A stretch of 64,000 nt of DNA from Candidatus Giovannonibacteria bacterium (GTDB lineage: Bacteria; Patescibacteriota; Minisyncoccia; JACPKW01; UBA11713). The stretch's first letter is position 1. Every line of letters begins with the position of its first letter. A program made the translations under genes and the position numbers. The notes under the pieces were generated by a model. It searched no databases and was not told the DNA's origin. It saw only the letters and a program-made list of their open reading frames with translations. Below are positions 39,213-54,287 of the stretch, piece after piece. The stretch spans positions 3,163 to 67,162 of the forward strand of contig JAHFOJ010000002.1 of the NCBI GenBank assembly GCA_023266875.1, in the 5' to 3' direction.

Positions 39213-39239
39213 CTATTTACATATTCGTACGAATACATC
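39213..39239. promoter_or_regulatory. Copy B of the repeated motif CTATTTACATATTCGTACGAATAC (palindromic core ATTCGTACGAAT)
   Basis: A 14-bp perfect palindrome TATTCGTACGAATA lies in the aspS upstream region, downstream of arsR. Confidence 0.5.
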
Positions 39240-39279: not shown

Positions 39280-39561
39280 TTATAGAATAAACGGAAATAT
39301 TTTCGTCAATACTCTCGGCACACTATCGGCAATCCTATATTCAATAATATTCATCCTTCTTTGATTTTCTAGAACGCCCGCGTTCAGAAGTGTTTTTAAA
39401 TGGTGTGAGGTAGACCGAAACGATAAATCAATCTCATCAGCAATCTCGCCGACAGACAGCTCTTTTTTAGATTTTAATGTTCTAATAATTGCAAGCCGTT
39501 TGTCATTAGCAAGCGCCTTTAAAAGGTTTTCTAGGTTTTTCATAATTGCATTATAGTCCAT
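39280..39561 (-). CDS. ArsR/SmtB-family transcriptional regulator
   Basis: 93 aa with a wHTH (LKALANDKRLAIIRTLKSKKELSVGEIADEIDLSFRSTSHHLKTLLNAGVLE). Confidence 0.85.
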   Translation of the reverse strand: MDYNAIMKNLENLLKALANDKRLAIIRTLKSKKELSVGEIADEIDLSFRSTSHHLKTLLNAGVLENQRRMNIIEYRIADSVPRVLTKIFPFIL

Positions 39562-39570: not shown

Positions 39571-39590
39571 CTTACAAATTCGTACGAATA
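39571..39590. promoter_or_regulatory. Copy C, the palindrome AATTCGTACGAATA, immediately upstream of the arsR start
   Basis: Seen directly. It lies 10-30 nt upstream of the ArsR ATG on the minus strand, between a TATAAG -10-like box and the start codon. Confidence 0.5.
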
Positions 39591-39663: not shown

Positions 39664-39690
39664 CTATTTACATATTCGTACGAATTACCC
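39664..39690. promoter_or_regulatory. Copy D of the motif, CTATTTACATATTCGTACGAATTACCC
   Basis: The 20-nt stretch CTATTTACATATTCGTACGA is shared across copies A, B and D; A and D share the flanking TTACCC. It sits between the HK stop and arsR. Confidence 0.5.
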
Positions 39691-39719: not shown

Positions 39720-41354
39720 CTATGCCCCATATGGAGCTGGATTCGGAAGATTTCGGCGTAGCGGCAGTCGGATCAAGAACGTGCTGCCTCTGCCTACGCC
39801 TGGTGATTCTGCCCAAATTTCTCCTCCGTGATCAGATACTATTCGTTTCGCGAGATAAAGCCCAAGCCCTATTCCTTCCGCGTTCGCTTTCGCGCCCGTA
39901 TTTCCTCTGGTAAATCGGCTGAATATTCTTTCAAGATCTTCTTTCACCATGCCAACACCCGAATCGAGGAAAGTAATCAATAAAACCTCCCCCCCGCCGC
40001 TGCTTTTCGTTTCAATTTTTATTTTTACAAAACCTCGCGGGGTGTATTTGAGGTCATTGTCTATAATATTTGTAATAACTTGGCGGAACTTTTCCTTATC
40101 CACCGAAACATCTGGCAAAGTAGAGTCCGGCTTTTCGAAAATAAGTTCAATTTGCTTATCACGTGCTGGTCCTTGAAATTCGTCAACAACATTAGCGATC
40201 ATAGGAGCGATCTGGGTTGATTCAAAATTGTAATTCATGCGCCCCGATTCAATCCGTGACAAATTAAGAAAATCATTCACTAAATTAATTAAGCGCTCAT
40301 TTGAAAGATAAACTTTCGAGAGAGTTTCTCTGACTTTAGAAGATATTTCCCCAAAACTTCCCTCCTGAATCATAGAAATATATCCTTTAATAATTGAAAG
40401 CGGAGTCCGAAGCTGATGAGTGGCAAGCGAAAGAAATTCCGATTTCAGCTGATCAAGTTTCTTTAGTTCCACATTGGCTTTCTCCAAATCCTCCGCCAAC
40501 TTCTGAATCTGTTCTCTGGAGCGAACTTCTTGTAAAACACTGCGTATTAAAAGTAACCCAAAGAGAATAACCAATACCAGAAGGCCACCGTCAAGAAATG
40601 CATCCTGTAAAGTTCTAGCAATAACTGTTCTTACTAAAAGAAATACACAAATTGAAAAAACCAGTAGTTCGGTAGCAATAACACGCACATTAAATAAACG
40701 ATGCTTTATGACAGCATATCCAAGGAAAAAGGGAAAAAAAGAAACTAAAAAATTACCAAATGGCGGGATAGGAACTCCATACCATAAAAAAAAGTTCGTA
40801 GCCCCACCTCCGAATCCAAAAATCGCCCCAAGGACAACATAAGAGATCTGCCCTTTCTTTGATTTATCGGATAGCTTATAAGATTTTGCCAATAAAATGA
40901 AAGCATATAAAACCAGCACAAAATAGAAAAAGATTAGATAAAAAGTATAAAGCGGTCCAGGACTCGGCCAAAATGGGAAAAATAATTTTGGCCCTATGCT
41001 CTTTATAAATAAATTAGAGGTAGAAAAAAGGGTAAGTAAAATCGAAATAATATAAATTAAATATAAAAAACTGCGCTTATTTTTAGACTGACCCAACAGC
41101 TCTAAAACCCAGTGAAAGTAAAAAACTGGGATAAAAATTGATCCTATAGAGAAAAATCTTATCCAGAAAAGCGCTGGTTCAACACTTGCACTCGAAAGCC
41201 ACTGCCAATATCCAAAACTCCAGACTGCTATAGCAGCCGTCATAAGAAAAAACAATTGGTTAATTCTATCCCGGAAGCTTTTATAAATAAGAAGGAACCC
41301 AAAACTTAAAGCAAATATTCCGTTTACTAATCCAGATAAAGCAAAAATATTCAT
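39720..41354 (-). CDS. Sensor histidine kinase with an N-terminal multi-TM sensor domain
   Basis: About 7 predicted TM helices, a coiled-coil, HisKA (LSLATHQLRTPLSII) and HATPase_c (...DSGVGM...GLGLYLAKRIV...). Confidence 0.85.
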   Translation of the reverse strand: MNIFALSGLVNGIFALSFGFLLIYKSFRDRINQLFFLMTAAIAVWSFGYWQWLSSASVEPALFWIRFFSIGSIFIPVFYFHWVLELLGQSKNKRSFLYLIYIISILLTLFSTSNLFIKSIGPKLFFPFWPSPGPLYTFYLIFFYFVLVLYAFILLAKSYKLSDKSKKGQISYVVLGAIFGFGGGATNFFLWYGVPIPPFGNFLVSFFPFFLGYAVIKHRLFNVRVIATELLVFSICVFLLVRTVIARTLQDAFLDGGLLVLVILFGLLLIRSVLQEVRSREQIQKLAEDLEKANVELKKLDQLKSEFLSLATHQLRTPLSIIKGYISMIQEGSFGEISSKVRETLSKVYLSNERLINLVNDFLNLSRIESGRMNYNFESTQIAPMIANVVDEFQGPARDKQIELIFEKPDSTLPDVSVDKEKFRQVITNIIDNDLKYTPRGFVKIKIETKSSGGGEVLLITFLDSGVGMVKEDLERIFSRFTRGNTGAKANAEGIGLGLYLAKRIVSDHGGEIWAESPGVGRGSTFLIRLPLRRNLPNPAPYGA

Positions 41355-42232
41355 ATCTTACTAACCTTAGCAATAATATGGACTTTTAGTGGTTCAAATA
41401 TTATGTCTGGTTCACTCGAAAAACCGGCCTCAACCAATAGCTTCTTTAAATCCTTAGGTTCGCGATAATACATAAAAGGCCATCCTAAATTTGTGACAAA
41501 CGGCATTTCCTCATTTGGATGAACATTCGCCACAATAAAAACACCACCAGGCTTTAATATATTGTAAACACTTCTTATAAGTTCTGCTCCGCTTTCTTCC
41601 GAAAAATAATCTAAGAGCCCAACCATTTCTGCAATATCAAAAAAGTCCCCGCCCGATATTAACGTTTTTAAGTTACGTGCATCACCCCTAATCCAATCAA
41701 AAAGATCTGTGGAATCAAACTCCCCAGCGAGCTTTTTGCCAGCATCAATGGCGCGCTCATCCTTATCTATGTTTAAAACTTTTATATTTAAATGCCTCTC
41801 TTGGGAGATACGGTTTATAGATTGAATAAGAGCTCGCATCGAACCACCCCCAACGCTTATAATTTTGATTAAACGAGTATCGTCTATCCTCGTTAACCTT
41901 AAAATTTCTTCGTCCATATTCATTTCAACCAGCGCAAGCCGATTTCTTAAGGCTTTCGGCTGAGAGAAACAATGATGCCAAAATAAATCCGCCAAGCCCT
42001 GCATAATTCCTCTCGAAAATAAGCCACGTTGGTGTCTGGTATACATTGCATCTAAAGCAGCGGCAGTTCCTGTATTTTGAACTACAGTTTTAGAATCATG
42101 GCTTGTAGATCGCATCATCTTCTTTAGAAATTCCGGAGAAACATGATTCATAATTGGAACGCTAAAAATCCTGATAAACTTTGTCACCAGTCCATGAGTT
42201 TCCATTTCATTAGATATGGTTGTCGTTCCCAT
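41351..42232 (-). CDS. Class I SAM-dependent methyltransferase translationally coupled to the histidine kinase
   Basis: Motif I IISVGGGSMRA, an acidic motif II and motif IV in a Rossmann-fold MTase arrangement. It overlaps the HK gene by 4 nt. Confidence 0.65.
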   Translation of the reverse strand: MGTTTISNEMETHGLVTKFIRIFSVPIMNHVSPEFLKKMMRSTSHDSKTVVQNTGTAAALDAMYTRHQRGLFSRGIMQGLADLFWHHCFSQPKALRNRLALVEMNMDEEILRLTRIDDTRLIKIISVGGGSMRALIQSINRISQERHLNIKVLNIDKDERAIDAGKKLAGEFDSTDLFDWIRGDARNLKTLISGGDFFDIAEMVGLLDYFSEESGAELIRSVYNILKPGGVFIVANVHPNEEMPFVTNLGWPFMYYREPKDLKKLLVEAGFSSEPDIIFEPLKVHIIAKVSKI

Positions 42233-42287
42233 AAATCAAGGATAGATCATTAAGAAGATAAAACCTGACGCGAACTATACCCAAATT

Positions 42288-42325
42288 ATCCCACAAAAAG
42301 CCCTTGGGAATAAGGGATAAAAAAA
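42288..42325. repeat. Direct repeat copy 1, TATCCCACAAAAAGCCCTTGGGAATAAGGGATAAAAA
   Basis: About 38 nt with 34/38 identity to copy 2, 360 nt away. It contains a CCCTT/AAGGG hairpin plus A/T runs. Confidence 0.55.
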
Positions 42326-42352: not shown

Positions 42353-42604
42353 CTATACCTCAACACCGAGTTTGTCTTTGAGAACTCTTTTTATATGCTC
42401 ATGCTCTATCTTCAGTGTTGTATATTCTAAAACCCTATCTAGCAGCTGGGGGAATTCTTCTCTATCCGGTTTTTTGTTAATTTCTTCGGTTAGTCTCTCA
42501 AATCTCTTATCAATATTAATAAGATCGGGATTTAATTCTTTCCTGATTTGTTTAGCAAATGTCTTCAATTCATCCTTTAGATCCTGCTTTGTGATTTGTT
42601 TCAC
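42353..42604 (-). CDS. Hypothetical small charged protein
   Basis: 83-aa ORF that is K/E-rich and predicted helical. It is flanked by the two direct-repeat copies. Confidence 0.4.
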   Translation of the reverse strand: MKQITKQDLKDELKTFAKQIRKELNPDLINIDKRFERLTEEINKKPDREEFPQLLDRVLEYTTLKIEHEHIKRVLKDKLGVEV

Positions 42605-42647: not shown

Positions 42648-42685
42648 TATCCCACAAAAAGCCCGTGGAAATAAGGAATAAAAAT
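42648..42685. repeat. Direct repeat copy 2, TATCCCACAAAAAGCCCGTGGAAATAAGGAATAAAAA
   Basis: See copy 1. Confidence 0.55.
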
Positions 42686-42767: not shown

Positions 42768-44687
42768 ATGAAGACGAAGAAAGCACGATGGATAATCGGA
42801 GGTTTAATTTTTTGGATAGTTGGATTGCTTGAGGGAAAAACTGAAGCAAATTTTGGTGGGCTCCATAGGGAATTTTCCCCATGCGCCCCAGGCAACGGCC
42901 GCGCAGTCGCGTTCAGCCCGGAGAGCAAAAATATTTTCTACACGCTCTGGAACGATACGCGAATATTCATAACCGACCCTAACAACACCACTTGCTCGGC
43001 GATTAATACTGGAATTGTTTTCGGAGCGCTCGCATACGACGGAAAACGCAAACGTCTCTGGGGCGCCGGTTATGACTATGGCCACCGCGGCGGAATTTAT
43101 CTGATTGATTCAAATGGTGCGTCCTCGCTCCAATTCAGCTTCATCCCCAACGAAACAACCTGCCTTCAGAACCAATATCATGGATATTTCACCGGACTTT
43201 CATATGATGAAGGCCCGACTTCATCGAACAGCGATGACTCGCTCTGGCTCGTCGACAATGACGGGAAAACAATTTACCACATGAGTCTGCAAGGCAATTT
43301 AATATCAAGTTCGGTAATTCCAAAGGGACCTCGTACCGGTCTCGTCGGCTGTGCAAATGGCATCGCCTCTGACAGGGACTTCTTGTGGATCACACTTATA
43401 TCTGGGTTGCATGCAGACATAAGCGGCATAATGCCTTTTGACATCGTAAAAGTCAGAAAATCTGACCCATCCACGATCGTCGAAAGTTTTTCTGCGGACA
43501 ACATAAACAACAACAGTCCAATAGGAATAGCGATCGAACGAGGAAAAACCATTCCAGGAAGAACCGGCCTATGGGTCAATTTTACCGGCGGAAATAATAT
43601 TAGACTCTTTGAAGCCGATAAAATCACTCCGGTCATTCTCGTAAACGGCTTTAGTGGCAACGCGGAAAGTTTCGGTCAAATGGCAGAATATCTAGCGCTT
43701 GACGGTTTTCCGGTGTATGTATTTGACTACGGAGAATTTACCGGACTAAATAGCGACATCTCAATCGAAGAAATCGCGGCGCTGTTCGCAGGATATGTTA
43801 ACGACGTCTTAAGAGTGACAGGAACCGGTCAAGTTGATATTGTAGTCCACTCAATGGGCGGACTTGTGGCAAGAGCATGGATCGCCGGCCTTGCGACAGT
43901 TCCGGTAAAATACACAGGACAAATTCGACGTATGATAACGCTCGGCACACTTAATTACGGAGCAGTGGCGGCGTCAATCGCAGATTTGATTATGACCAAT
44001 AACTCACCGATTCAGGGAGACGAGATGGCCCTTGGCAGTAACTTTCTATTAAACCTCCACAAGAATTGGATGGCCTTGAAATCATCAGGCGCGATTCTTC
44101 CTGATATTCTTTTTGTTGCAGGAACAAGCGGCATCGAAAATACTATTGATGAATGCGGCGGGATCGGCTGCTCGGATCAGATTGTCGATATCACAAGCGC
44201 CATTATGCCGGATGCCCCAGCAAACATGGTTCGTTACGTCCCATACATCCACGCGCATATCATGCCGTTGCCGTTCTCTCCGACGTCGATCGCTGAAATA
44301 GATTCAAAGGATCACGCCAGTTACAGAATTGCGAAAGCCTTCCTTGACGACGTAGTCTTGGACCAATGCTGCGACTCCGCCTCAATCGGATACACCCCGC
44401 CCCACGAAAGAAATGTGCCTAAAGAAAAAACGGGGACTCTGATTTTCCAGCTGATTGATAAGAAAGCCCTCACCCCGATTCTCGGCAAAAAAATAACAAT
44501 AAAACTCGATCGCGCAGCAAAAGCCGCGCTAATAGACATCAATTCGGGCACAGCCGGTGTGACAATCTTGAATCTGCCGGAGGGTTTACGCAAAGTAACC
44601 GTATCGGTAAAAGGTCGCAAAAACATAATTCTAAACATTGCAATTAAAGCTGCATACCCAATCGTGATATCAGAAATTGCAATGTGA
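42768..44687 (+). CDS. Secreted multi-domain protein with a class-2 (Bacillus LipA-like) alpha/beta-hydrolase lipase domain
   Basis: A signal peptide and an N-terminal domain of about 280 aa, followed by PVILVNGFSGNAESF ... VDIVVHSMGGLVARAW (the lipase GXSXG nucleophile elbow AHSMGG) and a C-terminal domain of about 230 aa. Confidence 0.75.
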   Translation: MKTKKARWIIGGLIFWIVGLLEGKTEANFGGLHREFSPCAPGNGRAVAFSPESKNIFYTLWNDTRIFITDPNNTTCSAINTGIVFGALAYDGKRKRLWGAGYDYGHRGGIYLIDSNGASSLQFSFIPNETTCLQNQYHGYFTGLSYDEGPTSSNSDDSLWLVDNDGKTIYHMSLQGNLISSSVIPKGPRTGLVGCANGIASDRDFLWITLISGLHADISGIMPFDIVKVRKSDPSTIVESFSADNINNNSPIGIAIERGKTIPGRTGLWVNFTGGNNIRLFEADKITPVILVNGFSGNAESFGQMAEYLALDGFPVYVFDYGEFTGLNSDISIEEIAALFAGYVNDVLRVTGTGQVDIVVHSMGGLVARAWIAGLATVPVKYTGQIRRMITLGTLNYGAVAASIADLIMTNNSPIQGDEMALGSNFLLNLHKNWMALKSSGAILPDILFVAGTSGIENTIDECGGIGCSDQIVDITSAIMPDAPANMVRYVPYIHAHIMPLPFSPTSIAEIDSKDHASYRIAKAFLDDVVLDQCCDSASIGYTPPHERNVPKEKTGTLIFQLIDKKALTPILGKKITIKLDRAAKAALIDINSGTAGVTILNLPEGLRKVTVSVKGRKNIILNIAIKAAYPIVISEIAM

Positions 44688-44699
44688 CCCGCAAAGCAA

Positions 44700-44739
44700 A
44701 AGCCTGACTAGAGGACAGTTTACTCCTCTAGTCAGGCTT
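44700..44739. terminator. Perfect 15-bp stem-loop (AGCCTGACTAGAGGA/TCCTCTAGTCAGGCT), a bidirectional terminator
   Basis: Seen directly. It is followed by TTTTCAG on the plus strand and lies between the convergent lipase and plsC-like genes. Confidence 0.7.
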
Positions 44740-44745
44740 TTCAGA

Positions 44746-45378
44746 TTAAGCGCGAATATTTTCAAAAAGCGCAAGTATTTTTTCGTGTATAACCGCCGTC
44801 CCCTCTTCTACCGTAATCGAATTAGAATCGTCAAGCCTAAACGGCTCCCCGACGCAAATTTGAATATTTCGGCCTTGGGCTTTTATTGCGATGGGGATCA
44901 CCGGGACTTTCGCGCCTAGCGCGATTGCAGATGCCCCGTGGCGAAAAACTCCAAGCGCGCCGCTTTTTTGCACTCGTCCCTCTGGGAACATCACAACCGT
45001 CTCGCCTGACCTTAGAATATCGAGCGGGGTTTTTATGGCAGCGTCTATCCCTTCCCCGCGCTTCGACGGGAAAACCCCCATAATTCTGAACAGCAACGGG
45101 ATGAGGCCAATTTTCCGCAAAAAATCAAGAAATCTGTGATTAAATTTTATATATTCCCCCATATAACGAAGCGGAACGAGCGGCGAGAAAAGCGGCAAAG
45201 AAAGTCCGATTAAAAATGAGTCGTAAAACGCAATATGATTTGAAACTATAAGCACCGGCCCTGCGACGCGTTTAAACTCTTCGCGGCCCGAAATTTTGAC
45301 CTTACGAAAAATATGAAATAGCAGCCAAGAGCCGGGTTTTATTATAAAATTCTGACTAAATTTATACCAATATTTCAT
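44746..45378 (-). CDS. Lysophospholipid/glycerol-3-phosphate acyltransferase family protein (PlsC-like)
   Basis: The NHxxxxD motif (VSNHIAFYDS) and FPEGR motif. Confidence 0.8.
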   Translation of the reverse strand: MKYWYKFSQNFIIKPGSWLLFHIFRKVKISGREEFKRVAGPVLIVSNHIAFYDSFLIGLSLPLFSPLVPLRYMGEYIKFNHRFLDFLRKIGLIPLLFRIMGVFPSKRGEGIDAAIKTPLDILRSGETVVMFPEGRVQKSGALGVFRHGASAIALGAKVPVIPIAIKAQGRNIQICVGEPFRLDDSNSITVEEGTAVIHEKILALFENIRA

Positions 45379-45500
45379 TGCGCGACCTAATTGACGATGT
45401 TAGAAATTATTTAATTTTGTCTTTTAAATATGGTGAGTAAAAATTTCTATACTTAGATTGAAATTCAAAGTCTTTCCAACTATTAGAATCTATAATTTTT

Positions 45501-46646
45501 CTACATTTTAAACATTCCGGCTAGTAAATCTCGAACAATCTCCGCCGTGCCGGCCGCCAGTGAAAAAGCCTGAGAATCTTGCCGAACATGCGAAAGCCAA
45601 TGATCTTCTAAAAATCCCTCGGCTCCGTGTAGGTGAACACATTCGCTAATAATTTTTTGACAATTCTCGTAACTAAATATTTTCAGCATTAAAATTTCTT
45701 TATCCACCGGCTTACCTTCTGCAAAAGCATCACATACCAAGTAGGTAAACTGTCTAGCGGCTTCTATGGTGGTACGCAACTCGACCATTCTATGACGAAT
45801 GACCTGTTTTTTACTAAGCGCTTCGTCAAATCGATGGCGGCTTTGAAGAAAATTAAGAGTGTCCTCCCAAATATAAAGAGCCAAAGAATTCAGCGCCACA
45901 GCTCCAATTAAACGTTCTCTTTGTAATCCGCGTAATAAGTATAGAAACCCTCGCGTGGAATCTCCAAGTAAACTACCCTTGGAGATTGAACAATCCTTAA
46001 AGCAGATCGATGCGGTATCACTTGTCTTTAATCCAACAGTAACGAGTTTCTCTCTTTTTATACCCCTTGCATCACCTGGCACTAAAAACAAACCAAGCGC
46101 CCAAATATCTTTTTGAGTTTTAGTTCGCGCTAATACAACTGTATAGTTGGCAATGGATCCATTTGTTATATATCTTTTTTCACCATTCAATATATAATTT
46201 TTACCTTTTAGCAGAGCCACTGTAGTAATAGATGCTAAGTCTGACCCGCTACTAGGATCAGTGGCAGCAAGCGCAAGATAAAATTTCCCGGCAAGTGCGG
46301 GTTTTAATATTTTTTCCTTTTGCTCATTATTTCCTAATTGAAAAATTAAAGGAGCAACCATGTTGCTTTGCACTAAAATAGACAACGCCCAGCCTAGTAC
46401 TCTAGATCGAGCTAATTCTTCGGCCAAGATAACTTCATGCCAAAAATCTTTATTACCACCCCCAACACTTTCAGGCAGGGAAAGACCGATAAATCCATGC
46501 TCGCCGACTTTCTGAAGTAGATTTACAGGAATACTTCTTGTTTTTTCCCATTCGAGCGCGTGAGGAATTACTTCTTTTGCTATAAATTTTCTAACAGTTT
46601 GCCGGAAATTTTTATGTGGTACATCTTCAAAAATAATAGGCTCCAT
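45501..46646 (-). CDS. Acyl-CoA dehydrogenase family protein, a possible acyl/aminoacyl-carrier-protein dehydrogenase
   Basis: 381 aa with the ACAD N/M/C-domain pattern (...YITNGSIANY..., C-terminal ...GAEGFLEDHWLSHVRQDSQAFSLAAGTAEI). An ACP gene lies immediately upstream. Confidence 0.8.
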   Translation of the reverse strand: MEPIIFEDVPHKNFRQTVRKFIAKEVIPHALEWEKTRSIPVNLLQKVGEHGFIGLSLPESVGGGNKDFWHEVILAEELARSRVLGWALSILVQSNMVAPLIFQLGNNEQKEKILKPALAGKFYLALAATDPSSGSDLASITTVALLKGKNYILNGEKRYITNGSIANYTVVLARTKTQKDIWALGLFLVPGDARGIKREKLVTVGLKTSDTASICFKDCSISKGSLLGDSTRGFLYLLRGLQRERLIGAVALNSLALYIWEDTLNFLQSRHRFDEALSKKQVIRHRMVELRTTIEAARQFTYLVCDAFAEGKPVDKEILMLKIFSYENCQKIISECVHLHGAEGFLEDHWLSHVRQDSQAFSLAAGTAEIVRDLLAGMFKM

Positions 46647-46650
46647 AATA

Positions 46651-46908
46651 TTAAAAAGATTCTATTGGTAGCTTACGCTTACTACTACCCTTGTTCTGAA
46701 TTACATAATCCACAATATCGCCAACTGTCTTAATATGATTCATTTTACTAGGCTCTATTGAAACTTTATATTCATCACTCAAAACAGCAATTAATTCGAC
46801 TATATCCATTGAGTCCTTGGCGATATCTTCGAGAAGTGTAGAATCATTAACCTGATTCGGTTCTTTATATAACGTAGCTCTTATTATTTCTATAATTTCA
46901 TCTTTCAT
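46651..46908 (-). CDS. Acyl carrier protein (phosphopantetheine attachment DSMD)
   Basis: 85 aa with LEDIAKDSMDIVELIAVL, a PP-binding serine motif. Confidence 0.75.
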   Translation of the reverse strand: MKDEIIEIIRATLYKEPNQVNDSTLLEDIAKDSMDIVELIAVLSDEYKVSIEPSKMNHIKTVGDIVDYVIQNKGSSKRKLPIESF

Positions 46909-47456
46909 AATAAATCCTTAAAATAAGTCTTGAATGGCTCTGTGTTTGAAAGCTTGTCATAAACCTCCTCGTCCATTTTCTCCAATTTCTGCATAATCGC
47001 ATCCAATTTCCCCTGACCATTTTCCCGGGCATACTTATCTAATTCTTCGCGTATCCATCCGATGTGACCAGTCTCATCATCAATCATTTTTTGTAAGGCC
47101 TCTTTAACCAGAGGATTTGTATCGGGTAGGTTTAGATGTTTGGTGAATTGATTAAGTGTGCGTTTTTCAAAAACTTGGGTCAAGCAAAAAATCTCAAGGG
47201 TATTTTCCGGCATCCCGAATAATTTCCCATACTCAGTTTGATAAGTTTCCGTCACCTTAACTGGTATACGTCCAAGATCCTTAATCACTTTTGTCCAACG
47301 CCAAGCATGCTCGGCCTCCTCGAGGCAGTGTTCGGTTAGTGGAATTCGATATTCACCTATAGTGGTGTGAAAAGCAAGTTTACCAAACAAGATTGAGCCA
47401 GATAGTTCACACGCACGATAGTAACTGAGAATATATAATTCTTGGTCTGACATCAT
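46905..47456 (-). CDS. Ferritin-like or diiron-carboxylate protein (putative oxidase/oxygenase subunit)
   Basis: 183 aa with the paired EEAEHAWRW and DDETGHIGW (E..H) motifs typical of diiron sites. It overlaps its neighbours by 4 nt. Confidence 0.5.
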   Translation of the reverse strand: MMSDQELYILSYYRACELSGSILFGKLAFHTTIGEYRIPLTEHCLEEAEHAWRWTKVIKDLGRIPVKVTETYQTEYGKLFGMPENTLEIFCLTQVFEKRTLNQFTKHLNLPDTNPLVKEALQKMIDDETGHIGWIREELDKYARENGQGKLDAIMQKLEKMDEEVYDKLSNTEPFKTYFKDLL

Positions 47457-47458
47457 AT

Positions 47459-48157
47459 TTATATTTGTTTATCGGCAAGAGCTTCACTCGGTCGTTTGCC
47501 CACTAATCGTCCCACTTTTTCATTAAAACCTTGGATGATTCTTATATTATCTTCTTTTGCCGGTGAAACTTGTGGCATAACGTACTCTCCTATGTGTTGA
47601 TAGTTTAGTGCGTGTTCAAGTACCTGACCCTTAACCTTAGGGTCTGCTTTGATCATTTCTTCAAGTAAATCAAAAGCGAATTGAGAATGACTGACTTCTT
47701 CGGCAGAAAATCTTGGCAGAAGATTTTTTAAAACCGGCTCTTCGGTGAGTTGTATGAGGTCTCTAAAGAATTCGGCGGCAAAATGTTCGGTGCCCATAAA
47801 ATTTACTAACTCACGTACTTTGTCCGTATATCTTTTATCCTTATCTTTTGAACGCACATCTCTAACTTCTTCATCTGTTACTGGATTGTATCCGACAATT
47901 TCAAGGTATCGTCGTAAAATAAAATAATGACCATATGCCTCAAACGCCTCTATTGTAAAAATTGAAGTTGCCGCCACGTTGTCCCAAAATAGTTCGTTCA
48001 TTTTTCCTGTGTAAATGGGGAGGTAGCACTCCACAAGACAAGCTTCGCGCAACAAGTCTAAACATTTAGTGTTCTTTAATGCCAATTCTTTATTGATTGA
48101 TTTCCAATCAACCCTGCTATCAAAAATTTTACTATTAGCGAAGTCAATGGTTGTCAT
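47459..48157 (-). CDS. Diiron oxidase/oxygenase-like protein (ferritin-like or heme-oxygenase-like fold)
   Basis: 232 aa with EAFEAYGHY, TEHFAAEFF and AEEVSHSQF His/Glu helices. Confidence 0.5.
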   Translation of the reverse strand: MTTIDFANSKIFDSRVDWKSINKELALKNTKCLDLLREACLVECYLPIYTGKMNELFWDNVAATSIFTIEAFEAYGHYFILRRYLEIVGYNPVTDEEVRDVRSKDKDKRYTDKVRELVNFMGTEHFAAEFFRDLIQLTEEPVLKNLLPRFSAEEVSHSQFAFDLLEEMIKADPKVKGQVLEHALNYQHIGEYVMPQVSPAKEDNIRIIQGFNEKVGRLVGKRPSEALADKQI

Positions 48158-48158
48158 A

Positions 48159-48989
48159 TTAGTCTTTTACTCCAATTAGTATTGTTTGTAACTCATTTTG
48201 ATAAGCGTGAATTGTATTAAATCCGGCTTGATTAGCAAGGATTTTTAAAAAATCCTCTGAACGATAGTGGGTATAAAGTTCTGCAATATTTTTCATTAGA
48301 TATTCGGAAAATTTATGCGGCATCATTCCTGATGTAAAAAATATCCCACCTTCTTTTAAATTATTGTGGGCAATTTTATAAAAATGCAGAGTATCCTCAT
48401 CGCTTAAGAACTCAGTGAACCCCGTACAGATAATCATATCGTATTTTTTGTTTTTTCGGTAGCTCTCTTCATTAAACGCATCCCCTTGCCAAAAAAACAT
48501 TTGATGCTTGTGATGATCATTTTTCTTTCCTAATACCTCTATGAGTTCACGATCCAAATCAATTCCATGCCATCTGATGCGCTTATAAAATGGGTGACTC
48601 GCGATTTGTAGTTCATGGGCGACTTCAAAAATTTCTCTCCCGAGTCCACATGGCACTGCTAAAATATCAATCGGCTCTTTGTGACGCACGTTATCTATAA
48701 GATTGTAGATTTCTTCTTTAGCGTGAATATATCTTGATCGGAGGGAACGAGACGACTTTAAATTTAAGAGTATGGAATCAAGTATTTTTCCGATAACAAA
48801 TTTACCCTTGGGTTTATTGGCATAGATATGATCAGCAAATTGATAGCTTCCTGAATTTTTAATTCCTTCACGAGCCAGCTCACTTGTTAATAGTAAATAA
48901 TAAATAGGCAAAAGATAGGACTTTCCCTCTCTCAATAATTTTCTAGGGATCGAGGAAGATTGGCGAGTTTTATTGTAACATTTTGGCAT
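48159..48989 (-). CDS. Class I SAM-dependent methyltransferase
   Basis: Motif I ILAVPCGLGREIF and WHGIDLD, with a Rossmann MTase arrangement. Confidence 0.7.
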   Translation of the reverse strand: MPKCYNKTRQSSSIPRKLLREGKSYLLPIYYLLLTSELAREGIKNSGSYQFADHIYANKPKGKFVIGKILDSILLNLKSSRSLRSRYIHAKEEIYNLIDNVRHKEPIDILAVPCGLGREIFEVAHELQIASHPFYKRIRWHGIDLDRELIEVLGKKNDHHKHQMFFWQGDAFNEESYRKNKKYDMIICTGFTEFLSDEDTLHFYKIAHNNLKEGGIFFTSGMMPHKFSEYLMKNIAELYTHYRSEDFLKILANQAGFNTIHAYQNELQTILIGVKD

Positions 48990-49743
48990 ATTTTTTGAAT
49001 TTCTTTGGCCAGGTCTTTTGGTCGCCCCCCCAAACTTTTAAACTATAGGCGGTCAATCTTTCTATACCAAAAGCAACACAGAGAGAGTTTGAAAAAGTCT
49101 TGCCATTTTTTATGTCGAAGCGTTTCCCAAAAAAATCTTCGTGATTGTTTATTGAAGCTAACGCGATTTTTCTTTTTCCATCATGTACTATAAATTCTTG
49201 TTTGAGACCTTTAAGTTGCTGAATCATTTTTGCCCCCTCATCTTGTCCAAGAAAGAAAGCATCTGTGGCATTTTTAAACTCACCATTGAACCCGAAATCA
49301 GTAAGGGTTGTTTTTACTAAATCTTCAATCCTCTTAATTTTTTCGATAATCTCTTTTTCATTTCCAATAATTACCAATTCAACCATATGAAAATCTGGGA
49401 GACGATATGGTGATTGCCAATTTCCATTCTCATATCTTGCGCAATGAGCCATTCCAAATGCGGCGTACTTCTTTACGTCTTTACCTTTTAGTTCGGGATA
49501 TACATGTAGGCAAGCCGCCGGTGTTACAAATTGCTCTGTTGAATTAAGAGTATTCATTGCAGTAAAAAGTTGATTTGGAAAATGTTTAAAATATTTTGCA
49601 TCAAACAAAACCTTTTTCGAAATGAAAAGAGGCGGGTTGAAAACTGAATCATAATGGGGACGGAAAATGTTATGCAAAAATAACACCCACGCTTGGAATA
49701 AGCGTATTTTTTGCAACATCGATTTATTATGAGTTTTAGTCAT
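48970..49743 (-). CDS. Truncated seryl-tRNA-synthetase-like class II catalytic core, a putative amino acid:[carrier-protein] ligase
   Basis: 257 aa lacking the N-terminal tRNA-binding arm. Motif 2-like is ...HCARYENG...YRLPDFHMVELVI (compare SerRS CFRREAG...RVHQFEKVE). Motif 3-like is CVAFGIERL. It overlaps the downstream ACP gene by 8 nt. Confidence 0.65.
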   Translation of the reverse strand: MTKTHNKSMLQKIRLFQAWVLFLHNIFRPHYDSVFNPPLFISKKVLFDAKYFKHFPNQLFTAMNTLNSTEQFVTPAACLHVYPELKGKDVKKYAAFGMAHCARYENGNWQSPYRLPDFHMVELVIIGNEKEIIEKIKRIEDLVKTTLTDFGFNGEFKNATDAFFLGQDEGAKMIQQLKGLKQEFIVHDGKRKIALASINNHEDFFGKRFDIKNGKTFSNSLCVAFGIERLTAYSLKVWGGDQKTWPKKFKKYAKMLQ

Positions 49744-49969
49744 CGCTCTTCAAAAATGTTTCCACTATCTTCCGAACAGATTCAAAATTTGGCATTATAA
49801 CTTCATCGTCTGTTAATTTTCGTCCCAAATGCTTTTCTATATAGCCGATAAGATCGAGAATATTCATTGAATCTAATACTTTATCCTTAAATAGGAGGGT
49901 ATTTGAATCGATGGTTCGACCCTTATCACGACAAATGCTTTTTATAAATTTTAGAAGTTCCTGTTGCAT
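49736..49969 (-). CDS. Acyl/aminoacyl carrier protein (phosphopantetheine attachment DSMN)
   Basis: 77 aa with KVLDSMNILDLIGYIE, a PP-binding serine. Confidence 0.75.
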   Translation of the reverse strand: MQQELLKFIKSICRDKGRTIDSNTLLFKDKVLDSMNILDLIGYIEKHLGRKLTDDEVIMPNFESVRKIVETFLKSDD

Positions 49970-49970
49970 A

Positions 49971-51131
49971 TTATTGAATTTTACCCCATTTAGATTTTAT
50001 GCAGTACTCTATAACTTTTCCGTAGTAATCGCGAATACCCGGCAAATGCTTTTTATAATCTGGGAGCATCGCCAACAGACTGTTTTGGAAAAAGTTTTTT
50101 GGATAGAGAAGTTGATGGGCAAAATGATTAAGAGCGGATAATACGTTTTTTAAAACGGGATTATTTGCGGATACCGCTGAATTCATAAAGAGGTCAAAAG
50201 CCTCTTCTGATACAATAGCTGGTTTAGGATAGTTTTTTTCTACCCAGCTAGAGTCTGCTTCTGCCATGCCCTTAAAACTCTCATCTATGATTTCTTGCAG
50301 GGTTAGTGATCCTGATCCGTGTGTAATATGAAAAGTTTTATTTGGGGAAAAGTTATTCCAAAAGAGGTTAAAAAGAGTACTCGCCGTATAGTCACTCGAA
50401 ATGAGATCAACAGAGTAGTTAGGAGTACCAGGAAACATTGAAGCTAAGCCAAGATACATCATGCGTATTGCTTGGTGGGGTGCAGTAAAATGACTAACCT
50501 TTCCTGTTTTACTATCGCCAATTACCGTAGAAAGGCGGTATATAGCCACAGGAACACTTTTAGCCAAGTTCTTCAAAAATACCTCCGCTTCATATTTGGA
50601 TTGCTCGTATGTATTTACAAAACCAGCCTCATGTTCTAACTCGTTTTCTTTGATAATCCCTATTCTTTTGCCGCTTACGTAAGCTGTGCTTATAAAGCCA
50701 AATTGTTTGAGGTTAGAACACTTTTGACCAAAGTCAGCAACATTTTTTGTGCCGGTAACATTTATTTGTCTTGCTTCACCCAGCGGAAGATCAAATCTCG
50801 TAGAGGCGGCACAGTGAAAAATATGGGTCGTTTTACCAAGTAGATCGTTATAGTCGGAAGAACTTTCTACCCCCATATTCTGTTTTGTGATATCGCCCTT
50901 TATAATTTGTAATCTTTCCATGAATTCTTTTTTATTTTGCAATGCAAAAAATGATTGTAAAATCGTTTTTTTATCACCACCCGATCCCTTGTCATGTACT
51001 AAAAGATAGATATTTGCTTGAGTATTTTTAAACAAAAGAGAAACGAGCTCTCTCCCTACCATCCCCGTGCCACCGGTAATAAAAATTTGTTGCGCCATAT
51101 ACTCTAATGTTGCAAGATTAGACAAGACCAA
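49971..51131 (-). CDS. NAD(P)-dependent thioester reductase (fatty acyl-CoA/ACP reductase-like, NAD_binding_4/SDR fold)
   Basis: Rossmann ITGGTGMVG, catalytic YEQSK (YxxxK), and a length and organisation typical of terminal reductase (R) domains. Confidence 0.7.
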   Translation of the reverse strand: MVLSNLATLEYMAQQIFITGGTGMVGRELVSLLFKNTQANIYLLVHDKGSGGDKKTILQSFFALQNKKEFMERLQIIKGDITKQNMGVESSSDYNDLLGKTTHIFHCAASTRFDLPLGEARQINVTGTKNVADFGQKCSNLKQFGFISTAYVSGKRIGIIKENELEHEAGFVNTYEQSKYEAEVFLKNLAKSVPVAIYRLSTVIGDSKTGKVSHFTAPHQAIRMMYLGLASMFPGTPNYSVDLISSDYTASTLFNLFWNNFSPNKTFHITHGSGSLTLQEIIDESFKGMAEADSSWVEKNYPKPAIVSEEAFDLFMNSAVSANNPVLKNVLSALNHFAHQLLYPKNFFQNSLLAMLPDYKKHLPGIRDYYGKVIEYCIKSKWGKIQ

Positions 51132-52075
51132 TTGGCTCCAAAGCCAAACGTAAATAACGCCAGATAATCTCCTTTTTTAAGATAGCCATCTTTATCCATA
51201 TCTACGAGATTAATAATATGATCACAAGAAACGGTGTGACCAACTCGTGATATATTTTTTGACCAAATCTTTTCCATTGGAGTGTGAAGTAGCTTTGAGA
51301 GTATCTCCCAACTCCTTAAACTCACATTATGAGGTACAAACCATTTAATATCTGACATGGTTAATCCCGCCCCCTTAACTGCGTTTTCAATTGTCCGTTG
51401 TGCCATTGGAAAATAAGAAGCTAATAATTCGTTTTCATGTTGCGGGGTATCCCAGTAGTAGGATTGAAATTCTTGATGAAAATATACTATCCTATTCTTT
51501 TCGGAATTTTTGGTGACTACAAGTGCTGCCGTGGCATCACTCATAATGTTGTACATAATTTCTCTTTTGGTTCCAGCTGGTAATGCATCAACAGCTGCGC
51601 ATAGTATTGATTCTTGTTGCGTGTTTGAGTTAGAAAGCAATTGATCCGCCAGATCAATTGCAGATAACAATCCGCTGCAACCCTGTTGAGATAGACCAAT
51701 TGCGTTCGCATTAAAAAGCCCAAGCTTATGTCGAAGCTCTGCGGCCGGATAACGAAATAAATTCAATGCGTTACCCTCATCTTGGTTATTAGCACTGTTG
51801 ATTCCGGAGTATAAAAAAATTCGAGTAATACTATCACCGGTAGTTTTATTTTCGCGCAAGACTTCTTCGGCGCTATTTAATAAAAGACCCTCAATGCTCT
51901 CGTTGTTGCTTTGAACATAACATTCCCTAAATCCAAAATCGTGCAATACTGATACAGGCGAAGTGATCTTCTTTTCTTCCTCGAGTTGTTCAAGCGACTT
52001 CTTATTTCTGGGAAGCCGATATGCCAGCGCCGCTATACCAATTGATGTTTGGCTTTTGTCTATATTTTTTTTCAT
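51104..52075 (-). CDS. 3-oxoacyl-ACP synthase III (FabH-like) ketosynthase/acyltransferase
   Basis: The active-site Cys block GCSGLLSAIDLA, the His block WFVPHNVS and the C-terminal FGFGANWSCLIL, all in the thiolase fold. Confidence 0.75.
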   Translation of the reverse strand: MKKNIDKSQTSIGIAALAYRLPRNKKSLEQLEEEKKITSPVSVLHDFGFRECYVQSNNESIEGLLLNSAEEVLRENKTTGDSITRIFLYSGINSANNQDEGNALNLFRYPAAELRHKLGLFNANAIGLSQQGCSGLLSAIDLADQLLSNSNTQQESILCAAVDALPAGTKREIMYNIMSDATAALVVTKNSEKNRIVYFHQEFQSYYWDTPQHENELLASYFPMAQRTIENAVKGAGLTMSDIKWFVPHNVSLRSWEILSKLLHTPMEKIWSKNISRVGHTVSCDHIINLVDMDKDGYLKKGDYLALFTFGFGANWSCLILQH

Positions 52076-52694
52076 AAGCTACGCTGATATAAAAATCTTT
52101 TACCTTAAATGGCCAAACATACCAAATAGGCGATTTAAATTTATGCATCTTAACTTTAAAAGTTGTATTTTTAATCTTATCAATAATTTCTGCTTGTTTG
52201 GGAGGTATAGCAAAACCAACCCCGACTCCTTTCATAACTGACTCTTTGATAACCCAGATTAGGCTTATTATATCTGTTCTACTCCCAAAAAAATTTTGCA
52301 CTAAGTCTATCTCATTCTGGTCAGCAACATAGTTAAGAAGAGATTTTTTATGAGGTCTAATCTTCTCTATGTCGATACCTACTTTATATGGAGCGACAAC
52401 TCCAATTCCTCGATCATACGAATGACTCAATGAATAATAAATATTATACCGTCCTTCAATATACGGCAATCCATTTTCGGCATTTTTAATAGTTACATCC
52501 TTATCTAAATCCTCGGCGACATAGTTGGTCAGGGCTTGTTTTAATGCAATGCGTCCTAGCAAAAAATCTTTCTTTCTATTATTGGAGAGTTGGCGATATT
52601 GATGAAGTTCGTTTTTATTTAGCTTCGACTTGGCATTGGAATCGATTTTATTAATGCCGACTATACTGGATGTCATGCTTATATAATCACACAA
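52002..52694 (-). CDS. 4'-phosphopantetheinyl transferase (Sfp type)
   Basis: VGIDIEKI (GxDxE) and WVIKESVMKGVGVG (W..KEA..K motif). Confidence 0.75.
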   Translation of the reverse strand: MCDYISMTSSIVGINKIDSNAKSKLNKNELHQYRQLSNNRKKDFLLGRIALKQALTNYVAEDLDKDVTIKNAENGLPYIEGRYNIYYSLSHSYDRGIGVVAPYKVGIDIEKIRPHKKSLLNYVADQNEIDLVQNFFGSRTDIISLIWVIKESVMKGVGVGFAIPPKQAEIIDKIKNTTFKVKMHKFKSPIWYVWPFKVKDFYISVAYEKKYRQKPNINWYSGAGISASQK

Positions 52695-52713
52695 AATCTG
52701 TTATAATTCAACT

Positions 52714-53214
52714 ATGATTTTAACCTACATTTATTTGGGTTTGGTATTACTTGGACTTTGTTTTATTGCTTTTCGAAATAAGACTTCACTATTAAGGGGC
52801 GATAGATTTTTAAGATTCAACTTATTTTTTTTAATAATATCAGTGGTAATTGTTTTTGTAAGAAAAACATCCCTAGAAGACTTAATCATGATTGGTCTAG
52901 CATTTGTTGTAATAATTTCGTTTTTGTTTAGAAACAAGTGGCTGCTATTTAAATACTCATCTCTTAAAACATCGGCTGTTGTAGAAGACTCATTATCAAG
53001 AGTTTTGATACCATTTCAAAAAACAGAGAGTGGATATATACTTAAACCGACACCAGAAGGAAGTACTTATTTGCGATTGGCGAATTTTTGGCCAAATTGT
53101 GCTATTATTATTTTCGGAGGCGATTGGCATTTAAAAAAGGTCGAGGTGCTAAAAAACCTTCTCAAGAAAAATTTTTCTGGGGTATTCCCCAAACTAGTAA
53201 TTAAATTAAAATAA
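52714..53214 (+). CDS. Hypothetical integral membrane protein
   Basis: 166 aa with about 4 TM helices. It is divergent from the biosynthetic operon. Confidence 0.4.
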   Translation: MILTYIYLGLVLLGLCFIAFRNKTSLLRGDRFLRFNLFFLIISVVIVFVRKTSLEDLIMIGLAFVVIISFLFRNKWLLFKYSSLKTSAVVEDSLSRVLIPFQKTESGYILKPTPEGSTYLRLANFWPNCAIIIFGGDWHLKKVEVLKNLLKKNFSGVFPKLVIKLK

Positions 53215-53218
53215 CCTT

Positions 53219-53656
53219 ATGTCACGAGTTACTAAAGTAGCTTCAATAAAAGCAGAGCCAGCTAAGGTGATAGAGTACATTGCTAATGTAAAAAATCATC
53301 CAGCTTTTATTTCGGCACTAAAATCAATCGACAACCTCAATGGGGATCCAAAGCACATGGGTGAAAGCTGGGATTGGACATTCGTTATGGGCGGAGTTGA
53401 GATCAATGGTAAGGCAGAGACGGCTGACTATGTGGCAGGCAAACACTATTCGTTCAAAACCACCGGTGGTATAGTAAGCGCTTTTAGCTACAGTGTTGAG
53501 CCCGAAGATGGCGGTGCAAGACTGACTATGGATGTGAACTATGAAGTTCCACAAAATGTGCTTGCCAAAGCAATGGACAAAGCTGTTGTTGAGCGATTGA
53601 ACAATCAAGAAGGTGATCGAGCGGTTGAGAATCTTCAAGCTATACTCGGAGTTTAA
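53219..53656 (+). CDS. SRPBCC (START/Bet v1/polyketide cyclase-like) ligand-binding protein
   Basis: 145 aa with ...AEPAKVIEYIANVKNHPAF... and a fold-typical pattern. Confidence 0.65.
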   Translation: MSRVTKVASIKAEPAKVIEYIANVKNHPAFISALKSIDNLNGDPKHMGESWDWTFVMGGVEINGKAETADYVAGKHYSFKTTGGIVSAFSYSVEPEDGGARLTMDVNYEVPQNVLAKAMDKAVVERLNNQEGDRAVENLQAILGV

Positions 53657-53687
53657 TGAATTTCTTGTCCGGCATTGTTCCAATGCT

Positions 53688-54287
53688 ATGGTTGTATTTG
53701 CTCAATATTGCTTTTACCTTATCTCCCATCCTCTATTTAAGATATTTTTTCAACCAAAAATCGTTGGCATCGAACATATACCAACGAGGCCTTTCATTGT
53801 AGCGGCAAATCATACTTCAAAAATAGACCCGTTTCTTTTGTGTCTATTACCTTTTTCAGCAGCTAAACAATTGATGCCAATTTATTTTTTAACCAGTGAA
53901 TATTATTATAAAAAATGGTATCTCAAGCCTATATTAAAATTGTTTGGTTGTTATCCCGTAGCGAAAAGGGCATGGACAATGGAAGAATTTTTGTCCAGCA
54001 GTCTTAAGAAACTAAAGAATGGAAAGGTAATCATGTTTTTCCCTGAGGGGAAAATTATAAATGATGGCAAGAGAGATAAACCTCGGCCAGGGATTGGATA
54101 TTTAATCGAAAAATCAAGTAAGCCGATTTTACCCTTACACATAGAGTGGGGTAAAAACAAAGCCCTCGCTCCTAAAAAATTAAAACTTTCTTTTGGTAAG
54201 TTACTGTCATTCCAAAATGAGAGTGGACAACTAAATTCTTATGGAAAAACAGCAGAAAAAATAATGGCAAATATTTATTCATTATAA
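53688..54287 (+). CDS. Second PlsC-family acyltransferase
   Basis: The NHxxxxD motif (AANHTSKIDP) and FPEGK motif. The ATG at 53688 is more likely than the track start. Confidence 0.75.
   Translation: MVVFAQYCFYLISHPLFKIFFQPKIVGIEHIPTRPFIVAANHTSKIDPFLLCLLPFSAAKQLMPIYFLTSEYYYKKWYLKPILKLFGCYPVAKRAWTMEEFLSSSLKKLKNGKVIMFFPEGKIINDGKRDKPRPGIGYLIEKSSKPILPLHIEWGKNKALAPKKLKLSFGKLLSFQNESGQLNSYGKTAEKIMANIYSL

Follow-up and report, generated by a model that had tools for sequence, protein, structure and literature searches.

A SAM-dependent methyltransferase gene and a membrane histidine kinase gene form a two-gene unit that is conserved across well over a hundred Patescibacteria (CPR) bacteria. We describe this pair in a 64-kb stretch of DNA (hereafter, the window) from a Candidatus Giovannonibacteria bacterium. 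Judging from sequence and gene context, the operon probably couples the methylation of lipids to membrane sensing, because the pair is often joined or fused to lipid-handling enzymes.

Layout and conservation of the gene pair

The gene pair is real, with both open reading frames present at the positions given in Table 1. As claimed in the initial annotation, they overlap by 4 nt, the stop codon TGA of the methyltransferase gene and the start codon ATG of the kinase gene sharing the bases ATGA. The assignment of the upstream gene to the class I methyltransferases was likewise confirmed by matches to Pfam families of this class, and that of the downstream gene to a complete HisKA/HATPase kinase was borne out by Pfam matches (HisKA, 58.5 bits; HATPase_c, 85.2 bits), by the phospho-acceptor His313, and by the N, G1, F, and G2 boxes. 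This is the only kinase core in the window.

Table 1. Features of the methyltransferase-kinase locus (positions in the window)
Feature	Position	Strand	Size, residues or motifs	Basis
HisKA/HATPase kinase	39720..41354	-	544 aa	
Kinase sensor region	40530..41354	-	aa 1-275	AlphaFold model, hydropathy
Kinase transmitter (signalling helix, DHp, ATP-binding domain)	39720..40529	-		Pfam HisKA, HATPase_c
Phospho-acceptor His313	40416..40418	-	H-box SLATHQLRTPL	Translation check
ATP-binding domain	39756..40100	-	aa 419-533; N, G1 (DSGVG), F, and G2 (GIGLGL) boxes	HATPase_c
SAM-dependent methyltransferase	41351..42232	-	293 aa	
Promoter-like element of the operon	42284..42323	-	Hairpin CCCTTATTCCCAAGGG, then TGGGATAAT	Consensus
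ArsR/SmtB-family winged-helix regulator	39280..39561	-	93 aa	NF033788, 66.7 bits vs 55
PlsC/AGPAT-family acyltransferase	44746..45378	-	210 aa; NHxxxxD and FPEG motifs	PF01553, 62.3 bits
Secreted lipase-like alpha/beta-hydrolase	42768..44687	+	639 aa; N-terminal hydrophobic leader, Lipase_2 at 287-406	Pfam

Upstream of the operon, a hairpin (42316-42301) is followed by the extended -10-like sequence TGGGATAAT, some 50 nt before the ATG of the methyltransferase gene. The element recurs at 42648-42684, upstream of a small ORF, as a 37-nt direct repeat with 92% identity, and a similar duplicated TGGCATAATTTAGGTAT motif precedes the methyltransferase gene of the closest relative (locus L080). Based on its consensus, the CCCTTATTCCCAAGGG/TGGGATAAT element is a putative promoter. 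No riboswitch or other Rfam element was found near the operon. A lipid or polyketide-like biosynthetic island lies directly upstream.

Among 75 species-level genome loci found via the methyltransferase, the kinase was located directly downstream, on the same strand, in 69, with a median gap of 3 nt according to our ORF calls. Starting from the sensor domain alone, 70 metagenome loci were obtained, and in 67 of them a methyltransferase directly preceded the kinase; a separate word-index search with this domain gave mainly fragments and contributed little. The methyltransferase was of the same type as in the window in 53 of these 70 loci, and in 14 of the 17 remaining loci a second, unrelated-looking, Methyltransf_11/UbiE-like type occupied the same place, so that the arrangement survives replacement of the enzyme. 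The pair also persists while the surrounding genes change, and the genes downstream of the kinase are heterogeneous. Neighbours in relatives are housekeeping genes (DnaK/DnaJ/GrpE, TrpRS, AspRS, ABC-F). Moreover, in Mantel tests computed without correction for shared phylogeny, divergence of the methyltransferase tracked that of the sensor domain (r = 0.49; partial r = 0.43 given the kinase core), while the two halves of the kinase tracked each other less (r = 0.26; partial r = 0.08). No published description of a HisKA_7TM/PF12147 module, or of a CPR kinase-methyltransferase module, was found in the literature searched.

The methyltransferase and its lipid-enzyme neighbours

The methyltransferase is a lidded small-molecule enzyme, PF12147-like and not CheR-like. 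It consists of an N-terminal helical lid (about residues 1-116), with the conserved motif FWHH..SQPKALRNRL, and a Rossmann core with a GGGSxR motif I, D156, and the motif EMVGLLDYF; the SAM-binding motifs are invariant among relatives. PF12147 was its only near-full-length Pfam match above the cut-off, by a small margin (24.7 bits versus 21), with residues 37-272 aligned to model positions 52-290 of 309. The same family was matched by 22 of 25 relatives, with a best E-value of 8e-10. As PF12147 (Methyltransf_20) is uncharacterised, this match does not by itself assign a function. The CPR clade is divergent and has its own invariant lid motif, which sets it apart from PF12147 proteins and from PDB 3ocj, a putative member of the family; it shares 25% identity with a PF12147-like paralogue encoded in the window. 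A PDB sequence search with both of these proteins found no close relative, and NCBIfam returned nothing beyond weak OlsG and UbiE matches, which provides no evidence of orthology to PhcB or any characterised enzyme. The best structural neighbours were enzymes acting on acyl-carrier-bound or lipophilic small molecules, and fold and context together point to chemistry of this kind.

The initial annotation had suggested a methylation-linked signalling module, chemotaxis-like CheR logic without MCPs, or a kinase acting on a distant regulator, and this interpretation stood in part. The pairing is real and conserved. Neither the N-terminal domain nor the beta-subdomain of CheR is present in the methyltransferase. 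No match to CheR_N or CheR was obtained for it at E ≤ 0.01 in Pfam, and structural comparison did not place it with CheR. Weak, partial, sub-threshold matches to the CheR SAM domain (PF01739) were observed in 12 of 25 relatives.

A PlsC-type acyltransferase is a third, looser member of the conserved cassette. A PlsC homologue accompanies the methyltransferase in 41 of 69 genome loci (59%): 4 encode a fusion of the two, 19 have the PlsC gene immediately upstream, and another 18 have it no more than four genes away. The methyltransferase-kinase linkage, by comparison, exceeds 90%. The 150 best family representatives included proteins of 510-555 aa that correspond to four PlsC-methyltransferase fusions (P0159, P0165, P0217, and P0225) and one alpha/beta-hydrolase-methyltransferase fusion (P0183); P0002 is an additional PlsC fusion. 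The second methyltransferase type was likewise found fused to PlsC (L102, L133). In the window, PlsC is the last gene of the operon of the upstream island, and the convergent lipase-like gene occupies the slot between PlsC and the methyltransferase. No homologue of this lipase-like gene was found among 79 genome loci; a different alpha/beta-hydrolase was present in the same slot in L041, L052, L056, and L058.

The kinase and its putative receiver partner

The sensor region of the kinase matched HisKA_7TM (PF16927) with 70.5 bits (cut-off 28.6) over residues 14-223. Rather than the seven or so transmembrane helices initially annotated, the AlphaFold model and hydropathy indicated nine (residues 2-25, 30-54, 58-86, 94-109, 134-161, 164-185, 200-220, 223-244, and 249-~275), i.e., a seven-helix core plus two, together with a beta-hairpin at 117-132 containing FPFWPxPG. 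The sensor is almost wholly membrane-embedded and, according to the positive-inside rule, the N-terminus is outside. Conserved residues, including a strongly conserved set of aromatic motifs, cluster on the outer face. In the predicted structure, the core is GPCR-like and the fold resembles ligand-binding seven-helix receptors; since the helical bundles compared share 7-10% identity, this resemblance may be an analogy only.

The catalytic residues of the transmitter are conserved: His313 was invariant in all 58 relatives, and N433, D464xGxG, F478, and G496xG were invariant or nearly so. HisKA kinases normally carry Glu or Asp directly after the phospho-acceptor His. Here this position is occupied by Gln314, as in 46 of the 58 relatives, and the His-Gln pair was found in 92 of 112 methyltransferase-linked and 20 of 24 other sensor-bearing kinase cores from the retrieved loci. 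Because of this substitution, kinase activity may be atypical.

The reported absence of a REC-domain gene from the window was upheld; the source contig, at 77,226 bp, extends about 13 kb beyond the window. A receiver HMM found no match below E = 4 in any of the six frames, whereas it detected receivers in related loci at 1e-14 to 1e-50, and tblastn of the relatives' receiver proteins against the window gave no match better than E = 0.24. Among 98 unique relative loci, a receiver was encoded beside the operon in 16 (~16%): in 11 it immediately follows the operon, and in 5 it lies in the 2 kb that precede it. These proteins have no DNA-binding domain and consist of a receiver only (125-156 aa), with the exception of one 281-aa protein with two receiver domains.

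Proposed function, alternatives and known systems

The reading we put forward, to which we give somewhat less than an even chance, is that the enzyme makes a methylated, lipid-derived molecule, and that the kinase senses this molecule and signals to a receiver encoded elsewhere. The methyltransferase, with a PlsC-type acyltransferase and/or an alpha/beta-hydrolase, would methylate an acyl or carboxyl compound derived from lipids. The product or its precursor would partition into the membrane and occupy the aromatic pocket that faces outward in the sensor; as the enzyme is cytoplasmic and the conserved sensor face is outside, this would require passage of the product into or across the membrane. 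Next, the kinase would autophosphorylate at His313 and pass the phosphate to a stand-alone receiver without a DNA-binding domain, encoded in this genome outside the window. In a more specific and rather doubtful version, the operon would be a lipid-signal circuit typical of CPR bacteria, with an acyl compound, either scavenged or made by the cell itself, converted by methyltransferase and acyltransferase/esterase into a methylated signal able to permeate membranes. This signal would be read at the cell surface by the GPCR-like receptor kinase, with output through a CheY-like receiver and not a transcription factor. A counterpoint to our main reading is the looser linkage of PlsC, which in the window belongs to another operon.

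The same lipid-enzyme associations would also fit a DesK-like loop of membrane homeostasis, in which methyltransferase and PlsC remodel bulk lipids, e.g., scavenged host lipids, and the kinase adjusts the process after sensing a property of the bilayer and not a ligand. Dependence on acquired lipids is commonly assumed for CPR bacteria, and the almost wholly embedded sensor suits such a role. We consider this loop unlikely, however, given the conserved aromatic motifs of the outer face, the beta-hairpin, and the resemblance to ligand-binding receptors; in addition, methyltransferase-kinase coupling is tight while the PlsC linkage is looser, and, as the operon-adjacent receivers have no DNA-binding output, a DesR-like feedback on transcription is not apparent. 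The coupled translation and almost constant adjacency of the two genes could instead suggest a stoichiometric complex, in which the methyltransferase methylates the kinase or a partner in the manner of CheR, or is bound to the transmitter as a cytoplasmic co-sensor (e.g., of SAM/SAH or substrate). The sub-threshold CheR matches and the absence of a receiver from most loci are compatible with this arrangement, which has a low probability in our judgement.

It is more improbable still that the two genes are merely co-expressed, the kinase being an ordinary orphan sensor whose stimulus is unrelated to the methyltransferase. The housekeeping neighbours do suggest that some of the synteny simply reflects the conservation of gene order in small genomes, but the pair persists amid changing surroundings, holds in both search directions, and outlives replacement of the methyltransferase type. 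As the initial annotation noted, an ArsR gene is adjacent, 158 nt downstream of the kinase, and the palindrome ATTCGTACGAAT occurs three times in its flanks; this position would suit an output regulator acting in place of a receiver. That role is effectively refuted by the comparative data and is extremely unlikely: in L080 no ArsR gene is present between the kinase and aspS and the palindrome is kept upstream of aspS, an ArsR-like gene follows the kinase in just one genome locus (L031), and ArsR proteins are not known to have a phospho-acceptor domain. The gene is adjacent to the module, not part of it, and, with heterogeneous genes downstream of the kinase, it was rejected as a conserved partner. 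ArsM-type arsenic methylation was also rejected, since the methyltransferase has a single, non-conserved cysteine and the non-conserved ArsR protein has none, and hence no metal- or thiol-sensing cysteines.

The proposed circuit, from methylated product to membrane kinase, has a parallel in the quorum-sensing operon phcBSR(Q) of Ralstonia, where the methyltransferase PhcB makes methyl 3-hydroxymyristate, which is sensed by the kinase PhcS, and where the regulators PhcR and PhcQ have a receiver and no DNA-binding domain (PMC11960443). In both systems a SAM methyltransferase gene precedes a membrane histidine kinase gene in one operon, and the Phc regulators resemble the stand-alone receivers at ~16% of CPR operons in having no DNA-binding domain. 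The substrate of PhcB is a fatty-acid derivative, and we infer a lipid-derived substrate for the CPR enzyme. However, orthology with PhcB or PhcS is not supported by sequence evidence, and the CPR proteins are a PF12147-like methyltransferase and a kinase with a nine-helix HisKA_7TM sensor. Most CPR loci, including that of the window, have no regulator in the operon, and the hosts are CPR bacteria, not Betaproteobacteria.

In logic, with no homology claimed, the operon also resembles luxM-luxN and cqsA-cqsS of Vibrio, where the gene of an enzyme that forms a small molecule lies beside that of a polytopic membrane kinase, whose helices bind the lipophilic product. Nine membrane helices have also been described for LuxN. 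The Vibrio kinases differ in being hybrids with a fused receiver, and their synthases are not methyltransferases. DesK-DesR and the des desaturase of Bacillus likewise combine the gene of a lipid-modifying enzyme with a kinase whose sensor is purely membrane-embedded. DesK, however, has five helices and senses the state of the bilayer, and its operon includes the gene for the DNA-binding regulator DesR, whereas the CPR operon has no such regulator and a sensor that looks like a ligand-binding receptor. The CheR/MCP/CheA system shares the association of a SAM methyltransferase with a histidine-kinase pathway; apart from the methyltransferase domains discussed above, it differs in that the CPR kinase is of the HisKA type, not CheA.

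Sensor kinases are scarce in CPR bacteria, at about 0.29 per 100 genes (PMC10805038). The type described here recurs across many CPR lineages and is almost always tied to a methyltransferase and often to lipid-handling enzymes. Its His-Gln H-box and GPCR-like sensor fold are of interest to the two-component-system field. The proteins of the operon are small enough for heterologous expression, which makes a direct search for ligand, methylated product, and receiver partner feasible. The operon is thus a concrete, testable route to how host-dependent CPR cells monitor lipids or communicate. If the lipid-signal circuit is true, it would mean quorum sensing or host-lipid sensing in ultra-small episymbionts.

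The methyltransferase-kinase pair

The initial annotation had placed a methyltransferase (293 aa) and a sensor kinase (544 aa) in tandem, and its coordinates proved exact, as did the 4-nt overlap, an ATGA in which the stop codon of the methyltransferase overlaps the start codon of the kinase. The transmitter of the kinase is complete, as claimed, and is the only kinase core in the window. Pfam matched the kinase to HisKA_7TM (70.5 bits), HisKA (58.5 bits), and HATPase_c (85.2 bits), whereas its NCBIfam matches all fell under the cut-off. A multi-TM sensor was confirmed, but not the proposed count of about seven helices: the model, confident in the membrane region (pLDDT about 80-93, residues 1-200), contains nine, in agreement with hydropathy, helices 4 and 5 being separated by a beta-hairpin (residues 117-132, conserved FPFWPxPG). 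Based on the placement of positively charged loops, the N-terminus is predicted to lie outside; given this topology, 19 of the 23 invariant or near-invariant sensor residues would be located in the outer half or outer loops, including W45, Y49, W52, W64, F126, W129, P130, G183, N187, W191, and P198. HisKA kinases usually carry Glu or Asp directly after the phospho-acceptor His. The H-box of this kinase reads S-H-Q-L-R-T-P-L; Gln follows the His in 46 of 58 relatives, and Gln or His in nearly all kinase cores of the 159 fetched related loci, in which the His+4 position is likewise variable.

For the methyltransferase (METHYLTRANSFERASE), Pfam gave class I methyltransferase families only, which bears out that assignment. 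The sole near-full-length match above the cut-off was PF12147 (Methyltransf_20; 24.7 bits versus 21), and NCBIfam returned weak OlsG and UbiE matches only. AlphaFold modelled the enzyme confidently (pLDDT 93), as a helical lid (residues about 15-116) above a Rossmann core. The CheR-like logic raised initially was not upheld: no CheR_N domain was found by Pfam, CheR was absent from both lists of structural neighbours, and CheR SAM-domain matches were weak and partial (12 of 25 relatives). Invariant SAM motifs (GGGSxR, D156, EMVGLLDYF) and many invariant lid residues, including W85, H86, Q91, R96, N97, and R98, indicate that the enzyme is probably active. Direct inspection of its sequence revealed no signal peptide. 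An ArsM-like identity was ruled out, as the lone cysteine is not conserved.

Conservation of the unit and receiver partners

About 130 close homologues of the methyltransferase were found, those with organism labels belonging to Patescibacteria (CPR) lineages (Nealsonbacteria, Doudnabacteria, the Parcubacteria group, and others). When 1.84 billion representatives were searched with a profile, 317 clusters matched at E<=1e-30. Scanning species-representative genomes with the methyltransferase profile yielded 79 loci, 75 with enough downstream sequence. A homologue of the window's kinase lay directly 3' of the methyltransferase on the same strand in 69 of these, the median gap in genome loci being 3 nt (simple ORF calls). 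In four of the six exceptions a kinase still lies no more than a few kb away, and the two others, L049 and L078, which have none, are labelled non-CPR. In the reverse test, an alignment of the sensor region only was searched against metagenome contigs (70 assessable loci). In 53 of these a methyltransferase of the same type was directly 5' of the kinase, and in 14 of the remaining 17 this position was taken by a Methyltransf_11/UbiE-like enzyme, which resembles the first type in the generic Rossmann core only (hhalign probability 31%). Some methyltransferase thus stands directly ahead of this kinase type in 67/70 loci, so the arrangement persists when the enzyme is replaced. L080, the closest relative (71% nucleotide identity), has only the methyltransferase, the kinase, and aspS in common with the window, and lacks the ArsR gene, the lipase, and the upstream island.

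In about 15 genome loci (including L024, L025, L029, L031, L034, L037, L045, L062, and L070), the kinase is closely followed by another class I methyltransferase, of 227 aa (Methyltransf_11/UbiE/TehB-like); this gene does not occupy that position in the window.

The reported lack of a REC gene was corroborated: a receiver-domain HMM built from six textbook receivers found none in any frame of the window, which covers 64 kb of a 77-kb contig (best E=4), and receiver proteins from related loci had zero matches there. The same HMM detected receivers in related loci at 1e-14 to 1e-50. A survey of 98 unique methyltransferase-kinase loci whose kinase is complete showed receiver-only proteins directly downstream (11 loci), within 2 kb upstream (5), or elsewhere in the flanks (2). 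A receiver was missing at 65 loci, so that at locus level the kinase is in most cases an orphan. The receiver proteins measured 125-156 aa, except one of 281 aa with two receiver domains, and in L102 two stand-alone receivers directly precede a PlsC-fused Methyltransf_11/UbiE-like methyltransferase. No DNA-binding response regulator was seen beside the operon at the surveyed loci. Where present, the visible partner of the kinase is a CheY-like single-domain receiver.

Lipid-related genes and repeats around the pair

Of 69 genome loci that could be assessed, 4 carry a PlsC/AGPAT-family acyltransferase (PF01553) as a fusion with the methyltransferase, 19 have its gene immediately upstream, and 18 have it no more than four genes away. 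The 150 best family representatives include five proteins of 510-555 aa, namely four PlsC-methyltransferase fusions and one alpha/beta-hydrolase-methyltransferase fusion (P0183); P0002 is an additional PlsC fusion. PlsC fusions of the second methyltransferase type occur as well, in L102 (4626-5984) and L133 (4507-5943), and in four loci an alpha/beta-hydrolase gene is placed between PlsC and the methyltransferase.

Upstream of the pair, a low-GC island (35-39% versus 42-45% elsewhere) codes for a lipid or polyketide-like pathway, unusual in a CPR genome. Its PF12147 methyltransferase matches the family more strongly than the kinase-linked enzyme, to which it is 25% identical, and places one PF12147 enzyme in an acyl-carrier setting. 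Island genes were absent from the 159 related loci, save PlsC homologues and a weak acyl-CoA-dehydrogenase-like match in L050, which marks the island as specific to this genome.

Features of the window (empty cells, not given)
Feature	Position	Strand	Remark
ATTCGTACGAAT, one-mismatch copy	17626-17637
ATTCGTACGAAT, three copies	39223-39234, 39578-39589, 39674-39685		around ArsR gene
Kinase	39720..41354	-
Kinase H-box	40413-40418	-
Methyltransferase	41351..42232	-
37-nt direct repeat	42287-42323, 42648-42684		92% identical
83-aa ORF	42353-42604	-	Lys/Glu-rich
Secreted lipase-like gene	42768..44687	+	Pfam; convergent, in PlsC-methyltransferase slot
Perfect 18-bp inverted repeat	44698-44741		8-nt loop; between convergent PlsC and lipase-like genes; probably a bidirectional terminator
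Low-GC island	44746-54287	both	about 44.7-54.3 kb
PlsC	44746..45378	-	first of two in island; last of upstream operon, ends at the 18-bp hairpin
Acyl-CoA dehydrogenase	45501..46646		island
Carrier proteins, two	46651..46908, 49736..49969		island
Possible ferritin-like proteins, two	46905..47456, 47459..48157		island; weak ferritin/AurF-like ORFs
Second PF12147 methyltransferase	48159-48989	-	island; 50.7 bits
Class II aminoacyl-tRNA-synthetase-core-like protein	48970..49743		island
Thioester or fatty-acyl reductase (NAD_binding_4)	49971..51131		island
FabH-like ketosynthase	51104..52075		island
Phosphopantetheinyl transferase (PPTase)	52002..52694		island
SRPBCC protein	53219..53656	+	island
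Second PlsC-type acyltransferase	53613..54287	+	island
tRNA-Glu	54377-54454	-	adjoins island end

The 83-aa ORF, which separates the methyltransferase from the lipase-like gene, is a candidate gene only; it had no Pfam match and no homologue among the fetched loci. The two copies of the 37-nt repeat, a hairpin plus TGGGATAAT/TGGGATATT, precede the methyltransferase and a small ORF, respectively, and TGGCATAATTTAGGTAT is duplicated in similar fashion ahead of the methyltransferase of L080. The three copies of the perfect 12-nt palindrome ATTCGTACGAAT sit inside a 24-nt repeat (chance expectation 0.23 matches, up to one mismatch counted). The palindrome also occurs upstream of aspS in L080 (7722-7733), where ArsR is absent, and was not found in the other 158 loci.

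Possible function of the module

Our interpretation is tentative: the methyltransferase would make a methylated lipid-derived compound, which the kinase would sense. It draws on the tight two-way coupling that tolerates enzyme exchange, on fusion partners that are acyl-transfer and ester-hydrolysis enzymes, and on the small-molecule-enzyme fold of the methyltransferase together with a sensor resembling an outward-facing receptor. A DesK-like membrane-homeostasis loop would be a rather unlikely account of the same lipid-enzyme linkage. Pairwise identities across 58 loci, uncorrected for phylogeny, correlated between methyltransferase and sensor domain at r 0.49 (partial r, with the kinase core controlled for, 0.43) and less strongly between sensor and kinase core (r 0.26; partial r, 0.08), which suggests that methyltransferase and sensor evolve together. 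That the methyltransferase works on or together with the kinase itself seems improbable, and it is more doubtful still that co-expression alone joins the two. The ArsR-family gene first described as adjacent lies 158 nt past the kinase; that ArsR is the output regulator of the kinase is very improbable.

The lowest kinase frequencies have been reported for CPR bacteria (PMC10805038), and our literature searches found no description of this pairing. The nearest described system to the proposed lipid-signal module is Ralstonia phcBSR, in which PhcS senses the ester that PhcB forms by methylating a 3-hydroxy fatty acid, and whose regulators have no DNA-binding domain (PMC11960443). Nothing in the NCBIfam scan pointed to the Phc family, and membership is not claimed. 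The present module is a variant of a known general scheme, in which a polytopic sensor kinase is paired with an enzyme that forms a signal or modifies lipids.
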